Assembly (NCBI GenBank): GCA_964016885.1
Contig: OZ024749.1
Span: 16,058,001 to 16,122,000 of the forward strand
DNA: 64,000 bases
Direction of reading: 5' to 3'
Source: Eledone cirrhosa
Taxonomy: Eukaryota
Shown: positions 9,864-53,550 of the stretch, one piece after another
How positions within the stretch are numbered: the first letter of the stretch is position 1
How the letters are laid out: the number at the start of each line of letters is the position of its first letter
Position numbers and translations under genes: made by a program
Notes under the pieces: generated by a model
The model's input: the letters and a program-made list of their open reading frames with translations, nothing else
Told to the model about the DNA's origin: nothing
Database searches by the model: none

Positions 9864-10278
9864 TGTCTAATTGTAACTAAGATGCTTCCATGGGTGGTAT
9901 GCCGGTAGAGCACTCTATGCTCCTACGGAGTAGAGTATTATAGAATAGAAAACGAAAAATCAGTGATGCATCGGAACTCAATTTATTGTGTGTTACAATT
10001 GTTTCCCCGGCGAACAGCTCGAGGTGCGATCTGTGTGTGGATCGACCTGACTCTAGACTCGCTGGTTATTCGGTCACGTCTATTGATTTCCGATCATATC
10101 CTCTTTCTGATCATATCCTCTTTTGATCCGAAATCAATAGACGTGTCCGAGGAACCAGCGAGTCTAGAGTCAGGTCGATCCACACACAGATCGCACCTCG
10201 AGCTGTTCGCCGGGGAAACAATTGTAACACACAATAAATTGAGTTCCGATACATCACTGATTTTTCGTTTTCTATTCT
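9864..10278. mobile_element. Hairpin-type insertion with a variant hammerhead in each arm
   Basis: Arms at 9942-10096 and 10124-10278. The plus-strand motif at 10143-10230 reads gtgt CCGAGGA...GAAA caattg TA acac. Confidence 0.75.
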
Positions 10279-10336
10279 CTCTCTCTCTCTCTCTCTCTCT
10301 CTCTCTCTCTCTCTCTATATATATATATATATATAT

Positions 10337-10998
10337 AAATGAAAGGTATAGAAAACACTGCAGCGAAAAGCGAACAGCATTCTATAGTATATAAGTGACT
10401 ATAGCGTCAAAATGGGAAAAATAGTTAACGTAAGATGTGGGAAAAATAATTTAAACTCATCTTAAAGAGAATCAGGATATAAATTCATCCACAGAATTTA
10501 GTGAAACCCAGGGAAAAATCAATAGAGCCTTAACTCATGATAAAATAAAGTTCAAGATACCTATCCTTCAATTTTGAAAAAACTTCAAATGCTCTGTATA
10601 GTCGTAAGACTATTTCATGAAAACTTTCAGCGGAGATGGTCACGGTTGGAATTCATCATCAGCAGAGCTCAACTCGATAACCAGGATTCTCGCAGATTAA
10701 TATACCAAAAATGGAATTCTAAACCTGGCCAGTCCAACATCATGCGTGATCACGAAAAACGCACACGAGGAAAAAATGGCTATTGACGTCAGAATGAGAC
10801 GAAAGTTTGTTTACAAGAAACAACAGTCAAAAACATTCCGAAAAAAACTCTACAGTAAGGAGTTCAGCAAAATGCAATATTATCGCAGTTTTTTACAAGA
10901 AAACCGGGATTAGTCACAAATAATTTAAGCACTCGAGGAAAAATCCGAGTATACATATATAAATGAAAGGTATAGAAAACACTGCAGCGAAAAGCGAA
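10337..10998 (-). mobile_element. Terminally redundant 624-nt non-coding unit with hammerhead (retrozyme-like)
   Basis: aaatgaaaggtatagaaaacactgcagcgaaaagcgaa occurs at 10337 and 10961. Flanks are (TA)n. Confidence 0.75.
10591..10668 (-). ncRNA. Type I hammerhead ribozyme
   Basis: Minus strand: gctctg CTGATGA tgaa...ttcat GAAA tagtc ttac gacta TA cagagc. All three helices pair. Confidence 0.85.
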
Positions 10999-11024
10999 TA
11001 TGTATATATATATATATATATATA

Positions 11025-11490
11025 TTATTCAAAATATTAACAAATAAAAGATATTCTCATAATCAAAATATATACTTAATTATATATATTTCAAAGGTAC
11101 TGTGTTGTTTTTTCAGTACGTCCTCATCAGACAAAATATATGATTTGATATATGACATACCGCTACGGTCTTGATCACTCAATTCCAGAATATAACATCT
11201 CTACTAATACTGCAATTGAATGATCAAGACCGTAGCGGTATGTCATATATCAAATCATATATTTTGTCTGATGATTCTATTATGTTTTCGCATTTTCTCA
11301 TTATTAGGGTATAAATGTTGAGTTTTCTCATAAGTTAATCACTACCTTGATTAACCTTAATCATTTAACATCTCAGGGTATGTCATGTATCATTTTATTT
11401 TATCTGATGAGGACGTACTGTTGTACCTCTGAAATATGTATAATAAAATTTAATTGATCACAGCAACATCTATTTTATTAATATTTGTAT
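11025..11490. mobile_element. Rearranged inverted insertion with hammerheads at ~11075-11137 (-) and 11397-11449 (+)
   Basis: attttat CTGATGA ggacgtactgttgtacctct GAAA tatgta TA ataaaat. An inner inverted repeat spans ~11124-11185 and ~11214-11274. Confidence 0.75.
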
Positions 11491-11640
11491 TTTAATATAT
11501 ATATATATATATATATATATATATATATATATATATATATATTTCTATACTTTAATTTATATATATATATATATATATATATATATATATATATATATAT
11601 ATATATATATATATATATATATATATATGTATATATATAT

Positions 11641-12120
11641 AATAAAGTATATATCCCTACACGCAAAAAGCGTCCATTAACACATAAATTAACGAGCCAG
11701 AACATATATAATCAAGGTTTAGCAAATAAGAAAAAGTTTCAAAATAAATTTCAAAAAGTTCACTGTACTCACTATGGTTACCTTTACCGAATCGGTTTCG
11801 AGTCTCAAAAATAAATGGACAGTCCTTGCGGCCTTCCATTGAAATGATAAACTCTCGTCAGAAGGTTCTTTTCACTCATTCTCATCTCGGGAACAATTTT
11901 GAATAGCGCCAGTTCGTAATTTGAACTCGGGAATTTTATATTCTCCGAGTGAAAAGAACCTTCTGACGAGAGTTTATCTTTTTAATGGAAGGCCGCAAGG
12001 ACTGTCCATTTATTTTTGAGACTCGAAACCGTTTCGGTAAAGGTAACCATAGTGAGTACAGTGAATTTTTTGAAATTTATTTTGAAACTTTTTCTTATTT
12101 GCTAAAGCTTGATTATATAT
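11641..12120. mobile_element. Hairpin-type insertion with hammerheads at 11780-11866 (-) and 11958-12044 (+)
   Basis: Arms at ~11704-11877 and 11947-12120. Motif: acctt CTGACGA gagttt...agactc GAAA ccg ttt cgg TA aaggt. Confidence 0.85.
11958..12044 (+). ncRNA. Type I hammerhead ribozyme
   Basis: Canonical core with three paired helices and a GUA site. Confidence 0.85.
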
Positions 12121-12711
12121 ATATATATATATATTTATATATATATATACACACACATGTATATATATAAGTTATATTTTCTTTGTTTCTCTATCTAAAT
12201 ATAACTAATATTGAAGTAAAACCAGGCAAGATTAGCATTTCATGGAATAATTTCTTGGAATAATGTATTTTAATCTTGGAGGAATTTGGAGATTTATTTT
12301 TATGTATTCCATTTTAGGGAAGAGGTGGAGATAAAGGAGCCTTACTCTTCTTTTTCTTTGCCTTCTTCTTCTTCTTCTTCTTCTTCTTCTTCTTCTTCTT
12401 CTTCTTCTTCTTCTCCTTTTACGCCATCTTCTTCTTCTTCTTCTTCTTCTTCTTCTTCTTCTTCTTCTTCGCCTTCTTTTAAAAATTCAAATTTCTTTTC
12501 AACGACATCATACCACCACAGTTGTTGTTGTTGTTGTTGTATTTATGTTATTGTTGTTGTTGCTATTGTTGTTACAGAAATCGATATCCCCCCCCCCCCT
12601 CATTTGTTCGAGCATGTCCTTCTTTTCGCTACATATAATGTAAGCTTCTCCTTTCTGTCCTCCCTTGTGGCAAATAAAGAAATTACTGTTATTATTTCTA
12701 CTATTATTCTG

Positions 12712-51063: not shown

Positions 51064-51134
51064 TGTTTTATCTGATGAAAACACAAATATTATTGTTTGA
51101 TGATGTTTGTTTTTGAAATGCGCATAATAAAATA
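51064..51134 (+). ncRNA. Type I hammerhead ribozyme in a solo copy (51005-51262) of the 20591 family
   Basis: tgttttat CTGATGA aaac...gttttt GAAA tgcgca TA ataaaata. Confidence 0.82.
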
Positions 51135-51570
51135 TATGGAACTCCTTTAACCATCTTTTGATCTTATATTATGCATACTCCAGTCCCACAAACTGTAGAG
51201 TGCTTCTTATCCGATATCTGCATTGCTTTATTGTACTACAATAAAACTCACCTCCTACATTATATATATATATATATATATATATATATATATATATATA
51301 TATATATATATATATATATATATATATTTATATATATATATTTATATATATATATTTATATATATATATAAATATATTTATATATATATAAATATATATA
51401 TATATAAATATAAATATATATATATATAAATATATATATATATATATATATATATAAATATATATATATATATATATATAAATATATATATATATATATA
51501 TATATATATATATATATATATATATATATATATATATATATACACATATATATATATATTTATATATATA

Positions 51571-51775
51571 TAGGGAAAAAGAAAAGGAGGAGAGAACAAG
51601 CACTGACCTGAAAGAAAATGATATACCCTCCGCCACAGGCAGGGAGGGCAGGCCGGGCAACCAACAAGCAAAGGGCAAAGGTGAAAAGCGAAATCACCTT
51701 CCGAAGGAGAACCAAGCGCAGAGGGACCGGTGGACAACTGTTCAAAGGAAGAACAGAAAGCACCAAGACACTGGG
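51571..51775 (+). mobile_element. Inverted second copy of the LINE ORF1 5' segment fused to the PLE fragment
   Basis: Reverse complement of 50568-50772 with about 4 substitutions. Confidence 0.9.
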
Positions 51776-52410
51776 CACGTATCAGGAACAAATGCACCGA
51801 CGCTAGAGACCGAGACACACACACCACACATTTCCTGGAAGTACTCAAACTGAACGGATACACGACATCCACCACAAACCGTGCCAGAAAGAACAGAGGA
51901 CACTACACCCGAGGCACTAACACCTGCTTCCTGAAGCTCCCACACTTCAGTGAAGAAACAACAACAGCCATCCGCAGAGCCATCAGACGAGAGGGACTGG
52001 ATATCCAACTGGCCCACTCGGGTCCTTCTCTGCGCGGACGGCTGGCCAAGAGACACTCCACCAGACATGACAACTGCTGCAGACTAGTCAACTGCCCCAT
52101 CAACGACACAGACCTATGTCACCAGGCTTACGTCGTATACAGACTAGAGTGTGACAAATGCAACAACTTCTACGTAGGTAGCACCACCAGACCACTCCAC
52201 ATAAGAATAAAAGAACACCTCAATAATAACGCTTCCTCATTTAAGAAACACCTAGTTAAATGCAAAAACACCGACAAAACCATAACAGTTAGGATAGAAA
52301 CTAAGGAAAGAAACCTCGGCAATCTTAGAATTAAGGAAGCACTAATTATAGATAAAACACAACCACCAATCAATAATAGACTAGAACTCAACACCCAATT
52401 TATAACCTGA
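51776..52410 (+). pseudogene. PLE RT-thumb/linker and GIY-YIG endonuclease
   Basis: LKLNGY...FLKLPH...CCRLVNCPI...C...VVYRLECDKCNNFYVGSTTRPLHIRIKEH...IKEALII...PPINNRLE. Confidence 0.92.
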
Positions 52411-52948
52411 TAGGGCCTCTAGCCCCATATTTACACCCCCCCCACACACACGCACGCGCACACACACACACACGCTGACACCTCCACTTATTCTCTCTCA
52501 CACATACACACACAAAACCAGTTCTAACACCAGATAACACCTACCCCCACATTTACGCATAGACCTATCTTCTCACACTCACACACACACACCCACATAC
52601 CTACACCTTCATGCATTCTCCCACACACTTATACAGGCATGTATATAAAATAAAAACAAAAAAAACCCCTAAACAAACCCCTTTTAAAGGGAGACTACTC
52701 TTTATCCACCTAATTTTAATTCTTTGATATTAGAGATAGAGCAGATACTCTATACTATTTCCTGTCAGCATGGCTTGGCTAGATATTTAGAGCGCTGGTT
52801 TGAGACCTTTATTTCCCTCCGAAGAAGAGATATTATCTCGAAAATTAATGACATTTAAATAAATTCAAGGTAAAGGACGAATTGTCAACAATATCTTTTA
52901 CAATTGCATTCTTTTTTCTATGTCCATACCTGCATTGTTTTGGCTTTA
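51776..52948 (+). mobile_element. 5'-truncated Penelope-like element of a second clade (Naiad/Poseidon-like) with 3' UTR and variant hammerhead
   Basis: The ORF runs to 52410, followed by a CA-rich UTR and a hammerhead-like motif at ~52815-52870. The element ends at (TA)n. The clade assignment is from motif recollection only. Confidence 0.85.
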
Positions 52949-53142
52949 TTACACATATTCAAACGTTTATATATATATATATATATATATATATATATAT
53001 ATATATATATATATATATATATATATATTTATATATATATATATATTTATATATATATATATATATATATACATTTATATATATATATATATATATATAT
53101 ATATATATATATAGAGAGAGAGAGAGAGAGAGAGAGAGAGAG

Positions 53143-53550
53143 AGAATTCACAAGAATCAAAGCTATGTTCAAAGCATTTATTCACTTACAATTGTTTCAT
53201 CCAAACCTACGCTTGGTGTCTTCGGCGCATTTTTCAATATTTGTACACATAAGTAACCTCCTTTCCAACGCAAGAGACCTACAGATACATATGTATATAT
53301 TGAGGTACATATATACATATACATATACATATGTATCTGTATGTCTCTTGCGTTGGAAAGGAGGTCAATTATGTGTACAAACATTGAAAAAGGCTCCGAA
53401 GACTAGAAGCCTAGGTTAGGATGAAACAATTGTAAGTGAATAAATGCTTTGAACATAGCTTTGATTCTTGTGAATTCTATATAACTGCTCTGTAGAACAT
53501 TGATCTATTTATCTTACTGGTAATAAGGTAGTAATAAATTACTGACCTTT
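53143..53550. mobile_element. Hairpin-type insertion with CCGAAGA-core hammerheads at 53184-53228 (-) and 53393-53437 (+)
   Basis: Arms centred at ~53310, with the tail on the right. Motif: gct CCGAAGA...GAAA caattg TA agt. Confidence 0.75.

Follow-up and report, generated by a model that had tools for sequence, protein, structure and literature searches.

How does a genome come to build, again and again, small hairpins with outward-facing ribozymes and a tail at one end only? The 64,000-nt window analysed here (Eledone cirrhosa, contig OZ024749.1, positions 16,058,001 to 16,122,000) raises this question at eight sites and in two large Penelope elements (PLEs), and PMC8557442 counts the origin of the inverted repeats and tails of PLEs among the questions still to be answered. 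According to that paper and PMC3846280, endonuclease-bearing PLEs carry an inverted 5′-truncated copy and, optionally, a tail of 30–40 bp. The layout of inverted pLTR, one-sided tail and opposite-strand hammerheads is already in print; what the present work adds is that the 3′ ends of a family fall at two fixed positions, one short (N) and one tailed (T), and that head-to-head pairs almost always combine one of each.

Inverted insertions of the window

Inverted repeats were found at all eight sites (arms 103–174 nt, identity 87–98%, spacers 0–69 nt), in line with the initial annotation, which had described an inverted and a direct arm around a spacer of 0–70 nt. They are 5′-truncated, head-to-head insertions of eight PLE families (A–H), bordered, like both large elements, by (TA)n or (TC)n. 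A 20–24-nt motif per site gave between 10 (for an overly specific motif at 30735) and 23,143 exact genome matches and its reversed control none, so that the recurrence is not due to chance.

The family C hairpin at 9864..10278 (arms 150/155) consists of a tail (9864-9941), a T arm on the minus strand (9942-10096), a 27-nt spacer and an N arm on the plus strand (10124-10278). The same order is seen in family F at 11642..12120 (site 11641, arms 169/174), where a tail with an internal deletion (11642-11703) and the T arm (11704-11877, −) are separated from an N arm reaching 12120 (+) by a 69-nt spacer that is sequence of the family's 486-nt unit; in family B at 20168..20564 (arms 127/136; tail 20168-20279, T arm 20280-20413 (−), 15-nt spacer, N arm 20429-20564 (+)); in family A, a Hydra-clade PLE, at 20591..21012 (arms 163/166; tail 20592-20680, T arm 20681-20846 (−), no spacer, N arm 20847-21012 (+)); and in family G at 46730..47044 (arms 109/126; tail 46730-46790, T arm 46791-46916 (−), 5-nt spacer, N arm 46922-47044 (+)). 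For family H at 30650..30985 (site 30735, arms 98/108, spacer 0), T arm and tail together span 30650-30839 (−), with a deletion of about 30 nt close to the N site, and the N arm spans 30840-30985 (+). The Hydra-type family D hairpin at 53143..53628 (arms 145/156) has its N arm first (53143-53298, −), then a 24-nt spacer, the T arm (53323-53478, +) and a tail on the right, from 53479 to about 53628. Family E, a canonical PLE, is represented at 32802..33037 (arms 99/103, spacer 4 nt) by two arms that both end 100+ nt short of the family 3′ ends; the 25-nt overhang there is not the family tail. The overhang on one arm had been annotated as 25–110 nt; family tails measure 38–160 nt.

A ninth small insertion, overlooked by the initial annotation, lies at 19192..19477: its inverted piece is almost tail only (19192-19295, −) and is joined to a family B N arm (19322-19477, +). 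At 51003..51258 (+) a single family A arm with tail has no inverted partner of its family. Tails are left-sided in 9 of the 10 tailed two-armed insertions of the window; the genome sample has no strand bias in tail side (62 versus 50).

Both large PLEs share this architecture, as had been annotated. The one at 626..5971, outside the range displayed, has a tail on the left (626-691), arms at 692-2468 (−) and 4223-5971 (+) with 93% identity, an endonuclease fragment between them (2495-2821, +) and hammerhead cores at 752 (−) and 5911 (+). The Hydra-type element at 41087..45045 comprises a tail (41087-41168), an inverted 3′ region (41169-42703, −) and a direct, tailless one (43500-45045, +), 98% identical, with an endonuclease fragment at 42841-43512 (+) and cores at 41275 (−) and 44939 (+).

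Ribozyme motifs point away from the hairpin centres as annotated, whereas the accompanying claim of a ribozyme on each strand holds only in part. Using a purpose-made descriptor scored against a shuffle level, we found the canonical CUGANGA...GAAA...UH core in both arms of four of the eight hairpins, namely those of family F (11861 (−), 11963 (+)), B (20383 (−), 20459 (+)), A (20779 (−), 20914 (+)) and H (30804 (−), 30875 (+)), and in both large elements; the 19192 insertion has one core (19385, +). The family C hairpin carries a variant CCGAGGA core in one arm (10147, +), the left arm being mutated, and the family G hairpin a U3-A8 covariant variant in one arm (46944, +), the left arm being mismatched. 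At 53143 a variant CCGAAGA core is read by eye in both arms, in another register than that chosen by the descriptor. No core at 32802 exceeded the 99% shuffle level (the best candidate, without C3 and A9, scored 6.0 versus 8.0), and the same coreless sequence recurs in most family E copies. By family, the pLTR hammerhead is canonical in A, B, F and H, variant in C, D and G, and was not found in E. An Rfam scan of 20168-21012 gave no hammerhead family among 37 matches, and in a separate Rfam scan the best 150 of 317 matches comprised only microsatellite and generic hairpin miRNA families. In its accessible part, PMC4209133 describes minimal PLE hammerheads as type I with a short palindromic helix III and a U3-A8 variant, and reports dual motifs on opposite strands, 100–700 bp apart, in Schistosoma; the CCGANGA cores of families C and D are absent from that part, and family E differs in having no core by our descriptor. 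The ribozymes are probably passengers of the pLTR.

Families and their two 3′ ends

The genome sample supports the Penelope identity that had been assigned to these insertions. A family E ORF of 887 aa elsewhere in the genome matches RVT_1 (3.6e-11) and GIY-YIG (3e-4). Family A has an intact 821-aa ORF flanked by arms, and although a Pfam search with it returned no family, the protein resembles that of family E (1e-8) and contains YRDD and GIY-YIG-type motifs together with the DKT and CxCX5C motifs of Hydra elements. Translations of L061, L245 and window position 42841 display Hydra-clade traits (DKT, CxCX5C linker, (TA)n target), DKT in L061 only. Likened by motifs, families A and D and the 41-kb element share DKT, CxCX5C, a C-terminal GIY-YIG, a hammerhead and (TA)n targets with the Hydra clade as described in the accessible text of PMC8557442, but at about 3.7 kb the family A unit exceeds the size given there, generally below 3 kb. 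An initial assignment to the Neptune clade, based on a motif, was replaced by Hydra on the motifs described in section 11 of that paper. Arms of families D and B adjoin related PLE fragments; for C, G and H such fragments lie within 1.5 kb of the arms, as proximity only, at 3/30, 1/30 and 3/10 loci, respectively, and family G may be non-autonomous. At five family A loci (L050, L066, L078, L086 and L087) the pLTR is in partial tandem with its tail leading into the ORF, and at family E locus L267 the ORF starts inside the tail. Taken as elements, these families are unremarkable representatives of a class already known.

Family F consists of non-coding 486-nt units in tandem; every unit has a type I hammerhead, and no stop-free stretch exceeds 70 aa. 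Its sequence suggests a non-LTR retrozyme, as the metazoan examples likewise consist of non-coding tandem units with a type I hammerhead each (bioRxiv 10.64898/2026.07.22.740005, accessible part). That work proposes, from phylogeny only, that such retrozymes use PLE enzymes, and the family F insertions here carry the inverted T-plus-N signature of PLEs in 9/9 pairs.

Each family ends at two fixed 3′ positions separated by its tail (about 38 nt in E, about 61 in G, 75–110 in A, B, C, F and H, 150–160 in D). Head-to-head pairs joined one T and one N end in 136 of 139 cases: 112/115 in families A–E (250 loci; P 6e-30 against 50%) and 24/24 in families F–H (70 loci). Loci were sampled by motif, for the most part at the beginning of contig C1, and a few of them (L091, L108/L126) are probably segmental duplicates. 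Three exceptions occur among the family A–E pairs and one more turned up when tail-only junctions were inspected; single-armed copies also exist (51003; L065, L070, L075, L082, L099). Outer ends abutted dinucleotide repeats, which hide target-site duplications, in 193/230 cases. Published PLE insertions agree with these hairpins in their head-to-head inverted pLTR, one-end tail, microsatellite targets and palindromic junctions (PMC8557442, PMC3846280, accessible parts), but here the tail is on exactly one arm, at 38–160 nt. Literature searches outside subscription journals turned up no statement of the T-plus-N rule, and a search on twin priming and Penelope listed none on PLE inversions. The initial annotation stated neither this obligate difference nor a single source for both arms.

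Origin of the two arms

Lineage variants are common to both arms at frequencies of 0.77 (family A), 0.85 (B), 0.81 (C), 0.40 (D) and 0.94 (E), against 0.12–0.22 for shuffled partners. Sharing extends to arms more than 120 nt and even kilobases apart, and to variants private to one insertion. This demonstrates that the arms come from one source. Concordance in family D is weak. The 5′ ends of the two arms are independent. Among 72 close pairs, the N arm was 5′-longer in 23, the inverted arm was tail only in 9, the T arm was longer in 11 and both were equal in 29.

We infer that both arms were copied from one RNA molecule, and we consider it probable that every insertion makes its hairpin afresh, through twin priming from both strands, at the T and N sites. 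The element's GIY-YIG endonuclease would nick both (TA)n target strands; one cut strand would prime at the tail end (T site) and the other at the tail start (N site); two RT active sites would work along the same RNA toward its 5′ terminus, and wherever the copies overlap the T copy would displace the N copy; and the two cDNA ends would be joined via short microhomology or end-joining. The smallest near-perfect palindromes would result if both copies extended as far as a capped RNA 5′ end lying within the pLTR. In LINE-1 twin priming the second target strand likewise primes internally and microhomology joins the inversion, but in LINE-1 the second site varies and the two arms cover separate stretches of the RNA, whereas the insertions described here use a fixed second site and mostly have overlapping arms.

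The genome sample supports priming at both strands of a cut (TA)n target with central joining, as first annotated, and this fits the accessible part of PMC11167929: in vitro, the Poseidon_Ac protein nicks and extends both strands of AT-rich targets, two RT start sites bound the tail, ribozyme cleavage is unnecessary and a dimer is predicted. That part reports no strand difference in start site and leaves inverted insertions unaddressed, while in the genomic products the strands take opposite sites. The T-plus-N rule, together with arms that are not nested, ties this two-site initiation to genomic products and yields precise predictions for the in vitro system already available.

The junctions are consistent with joining at each event. 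Blunt junctions are rare (4/70 versus 41% expected) and microhomology of 2+ nt is present in 29/70 (versus 24%). Family A arms share a 5′ hot spot, the start of both arms at 20591 and of the single arm at 51003, which is likely the transcription start; an untemplated G directly precedes it in 12/31 cases (P 0.004), a modest signal, and in 9/31 the preceding base is the element's own upstream C. Collision of T copies at the N site, hinted at by four family A loci, is ruled out by genome-wide counts of T-arm 5′ ends, which do not pile up there (83, versus 119 in the middle of the tail and 85 immediately inside the arm).

Two RNAs from the same source locus, one read at the T site and the other at the N site of an asymmetric dimer, would explain T plus N, the independent 5′ ends and the shared lineage variants equally well, and would agree with the absent collision peak, with the lack of a molecule-specific mark (55 shared variants of ordinary spectrum) and with the dimer predicted in the accessible text of PMC11167929. 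We judge this unlikely, since one locus would have to dominate each event despite thousands of divergent copies per family, both arms share even variants private to one insertion, and the asymmetry between protomers would be unexplained.

Far less probable is the self-priming proposed for rotifer PLEs (PMC3846280, accessible part), in which a single cDNA would snap back at a short palindrome and serve as its own template. The perfectly palindromic centres seen in families A, G and H, and the variants common to both arms, would suit it. However, the second arm would have to be nested in the tailed first strand, and the N arm holds sequence missing from the T arm in 32 of the 72 close pairs, 9 of them without overlap, so that self-priming cannot produce those pairs. 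Furthermore, tail-only junctions, of which the family B insertion at 19192 is an example in the window, number more than 200 genome-wide in family A (83 and 119 exact matches to two 13-nt windows); an N partner accompanied 40/40 of those inspected, and tail-to-arm joints recur in independent raw reads and contigs. The arm geometry contradicts self-priming as a general route, though some equal-arm or T-longer copies could have arisen by it.

Just as improbable is a hairpin that is itself mobile, as a MITE-like DNA element or as a whole hairpin RNA copied once, with gene conversion keeping the arms alike. Dozens of family A copies do match the entire 420-nt hairpin at 96–99%, and one locus holds a DNA copy of an edited read-through RNA (see below), but central junctions differ among those near-identical copies, which rules out a fixed master hairpin; arm lengths run continuously from tail only to >4 kb with ORF, and concordance holds for arms kilobases apart. 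A DNA transposon was rejected on the asymmetric ends and variable centres, there being neither symmetric terminal inverted repeats nor a fixed internal sequence. Long-read chimeras can create palindromes and no contig bridges the 9864 centre, but an assembly artefact of fold-back reads has a negligible chance given arms diverged by 2–13%, rule-bound asymmetric ends in 136/139 pairs, a contig from an independent run that spans the centre of a family A hairpin (20808-20890), and tail-to-arm joints in raw reads.

Read-through RNA and editing

With slightly more doubt than confidence, we extend the twin-priming reading to an obligately asymmetric reaction on a single RNA by a dimeric RT-endonuclease, with two fixed sites bounding the tail and the overlap copied twice by strand displacement, in which retrozymes would be mobilised likewise and tens of thousands of hairpins would be the animal's main source of edited dsRNA, partly written back into the genome. 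Exact motif matches from two families alone amount to 23,143 and 15,029, many in divergent pairs, so that these insertions could supply much dsRNA to a kind of genome in which editing is known to be extensive.

The suggestion that read-through RNA forms dsRNA, masks the ribozyme and serves as an ADAR substrate is supported for such RNA only. Predicted folds pair 85–97% of its bases, and such transcripts would form long dsRNA that is A-to-I edited at least occasionally; in this model, a transcript started at the centre would lack the partner arm and stay unmasked. ADAR-type hypermutation is present at two related loci, and at one of them an edited read-through RNA spanning inverted pieces has been copied into DNA.

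Hairpin insertions, ribozymes and families

Self-comparison of the window and arm alignments bore out all eight small inverted insertions described in the initial annotation (9864, 11641, 20168, 20591, 30735, 32802, 46730 and 53143), with arms of 103-174 nt at 87-98% identity and spacers of 0-69 nt, where 0-70 nt had been claimed. Beyond these eight there is a ninth insertion (19192-19477) and a single family A arm (51003-51258). Endonuclease fragments of Penelope-like elements (PLEs) sit inside each of two large inverted pairs, 41169-45045 and 692-5971. The window is 35% GC with abundant (TA)n, in a genome of 3.0 Gb.

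Hammerhead cores in the window elements face outward from the hairpin centre. The proposal of a ribozyme on each strand held for 11641, 20168, 20591, 30735 and both large elements, with canonical cores on both arms, and 53143 has a variant core on both (read by eye); but 9864 and 46730 carry a variant core on one arm only, and at 32802 no core scored above shuffle level. Passages of PMC4209133 describe opposite-strand hammerheads 100-700 bp apart and document a U3-A8 core.

Each hairpin names one repeat family, whose abundance was taken as exact genome matches to one motif per window site: A (20591), 23,143; B (20168), 7,660; C (9864), 473; D (53143), 1,249; E (32802), 1,538; F (11641), 462; G (46730), 15,029; and H (30735), 10. 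The reversed motifs, used as controls, gave 0 matches for all eight. A visual count over the first 100 family A matches listed gave 33 minus/plus pairs in divergent orientation, their members no more than about 5 kb apart. Between family A arms lies an intact 821-aa ORF carrying the DKT and CxCX5C motifs, assigned to the Hydra clade in section 11 of PMC8557442, while family E arms enclose an 887-aa RT and GIY-YIG ORF that starts inside the tail. Families D and B adjoin related PLE fragments, and family F is a non-coding tandem unit of 486 nt with a hammerhead; retrozymes are presented as PLE derivatives in part of a preprint (bioRxiv 10.64898/2026.07.22.740005). For families C, G and H, PLE fragments lie within 1.5 kb in 3 of 30, 1 of 30 and 3 of 10 loci and may not be contiguous with the arm. 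At L061 (899-5344), the sampled locus elsewhere in the genome that holds this intact 821-aa Hydra-type ORF of family A, the tailed arm spans one full unit, ending just past the previous tail-end position (n=1 case).

One long and one short 3′ end

Every family has two sharp 3′ ends, a short one (N) and a long one (T) that adds a tail of ~38-160 nt. The one-sided tail noted initially is present as a family tail, although its range differs from the 25-110 nt first given. The overhang at 32802 was rejected as a family tail; both arms there are clipped. Loci were sampled through a motif inside the arm, so that no end type was favoured. Our results show that, among the 115 distinct head-to-head pairs yielded by 250 loci of families A-E (loci with one visible arm being left out), 112 were T+N, two N+N and one T+T. 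All 24 pairs read in families F-H (70 loci) were also T+N, one of them the window's own 30735 hairpin. Dinucleotide repeats abut 193 of the 230 outer ends.

An inverted pLTR with a one-sided tail appears in the portions of PMC8557442 and PMC3846280 consulted, and literature searches found no paper on the T-plus-N rule or on twin priming applied to PLE inversions. The hairpins are real, their layout is already known and the elements themselves are ordinary; their value lies in quantitative evidence on the open question of PLE mechanism.

In the window, a small stem-loop bearing the motif ACTC...GAGTGC recurs a few bases into the tails of unrelated families (9864-9941, 19192-19283, 20168-20279, 20592-20680, 30660-30735, 41087-41168 and 51169-51258). 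It is a candidate priming signal; single-sequence folding recovered it in some tails only.

Origin and joining of the two arms

The most likely route to PLE hairpins is nicking of both strands, priming at T and N, and joining of the cDNA ends. The endonuclease would nick both strands of a (TA)n target; priming would start from one cut end at T and from its opposite at N, each copy would extend toward the 5′ end of the RNA, and joining of the two cDNAs at their ends would follow. Sections of PMC11167929 report nicking and extension of both strands and two start sites bounding the tail, and give a dimer as predicted and ribozyme cleavage as not required.

We prefer a single RNA, with strand displacement, as template for both arms; the main rival is that two RNAs from one locus template one arm each. 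Among the best 30 of 1,236 family A candidates (40 scored), variants found nowhere else were often common to both arms, and the central junction differed among the best copies. For variants occurring in at least three insertions, the arm-shared fraction was 0.77 in family A (28 pairs), 0.85 in B (20), 0.81 in C (10), 0.40 in D (17) and 0.94 in E (15), against only 0.12-0.22 for shuffled partners; this concordance also includes far-apart arms. The private variants common to both arms (55) follow an ordinary spectrum, so that a single source locus is shown but use of a single molecule is not. Collision of two enzymes on a single RNA was expected to leave a pile-up at the N site; genome-wide, family A junctions showed none, tail-only joints numbering 83 and 119 in the two 13-nt windows used and junctions just inside the arm 85. 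Of 287 family A junction matches we inspected 70: the partner was N in 40 of 40 tail-only joints, and the in-arm joints comprised 26 T-truncated, three N-truncated and one T+T.

Self-priming of one cDNA, proposed for inverted PLE copies in a passage of PMC3846280, cannot produce 32 of 72 close pairs (N arm farther 5′ in 23, inverted arm tail only in nine), because the second arm must nest in the tailed strand; in the other pairs either the T arm exceeded the N arm (11) or the two were equal (29, a class that includes arms extending beyond the reference sequence).

Many family A arms begin at one recurrent position. Directly before it an untemplated G stands in 12 of 31 informative arms (P 0.004), and C, the element's own base, in nine. 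Cap-derived G is known from LINE-1 work, and the G fits a capped 5′ end. Visual inspection of the junctions listed also showed preferred starts in families B, C, E, G and H. The survey of junction microhomology suggested at the outset found 2 nt or more at 29 of 70 central junctions (24% expected); blunt junctions were 4/70 against 41% expected, and 13/70 had inserted bases. Joints of this type also occur in independent runs, both in raw reads and in contigs, and one such contig bridges a family A centre; at 9864 no sequenced piece spanned the centre. At L237 (contig G000:C1, ~50855800), a family B hairpin has about two TTAGGG telomere-type repeats inserted at its central junction.

Double-stranded RNA, editing and neighbouring elements

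Whole hairpins are predicted to fold with 85-97% of bases paired (-150 to -298 kcal/mol; single arms, -17 to -34 kcal/mol). With such strong pairing, read-through RNA would mask the ribozyme, as first proposed, but RNA started at the hairpin centre would not. A screen for one-way changes over 730 arm hits from all sampled loci flagged two of these loci. At L313 (also L421; G000:C1, ~120058300) the N arm has 22 T-to-C and zero other rare changes, and two facing family A tails carry ~10 more T-to-C on the same DNA strand; surrounding the locus is a larger family A insertion with unedited outer arms. The probable origin is a read-through RNA, hyperedited by ADAR, that was copied into DNA. At L295 (contig G000:C3, ~56925600), ~9 sense A-to-G changes are confined to the N arm, the tail being unedited; an edited template RNA was likely copied into DNA. 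Excerpts of PMC3681739 report siRNAs from fly Penelope inverted repeats, and those of PMC5625713 describe lizard Penelope as heavily edited and octopus as having a high potential for dsRNA.

On the minus strand, 47175-50808 is a LINE that contains fragments of apurinic endonuclease and RT; an inverted duplication of its 5′ part (50569-50770 and 51572-51775) surrounds the single family A arm at 51003. A PLE 3′ fragment related to family E follows on the plus strand (51778-52870; GIY-YIG, 53% to the protein of locus L267), and near 52815 it carries a hammerhead-like CCGAAGA motif. The interval 5971-8430 holds a cluster of rearranged pieces, some direct and some inverted, of a different hammerhead-like repeat (CTGACGA cores at 6529 and 8235); other elements, at 6810-6990 and 7040-7440, are nested within the (TA)n of this repeat. 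Another two-armed hammerhead element, a family B relative with unequal, partly tandem arms, lies at 10950-11500, with a minus-strand core at 11130 and a plus-strand core at 11404. A SINE-like repeat, which we take to be one known from octopus genomes, has copies at 12756-13058, 16367-16504, 19874-20006, 40749-40925 and 45736-46075. PLE insertions are stacked in the same (TA)n tracts: 20168 beside 20591, and a tailed family B piece without partner (31005-31162, minus strand) adjoining the 30735 hairpin.
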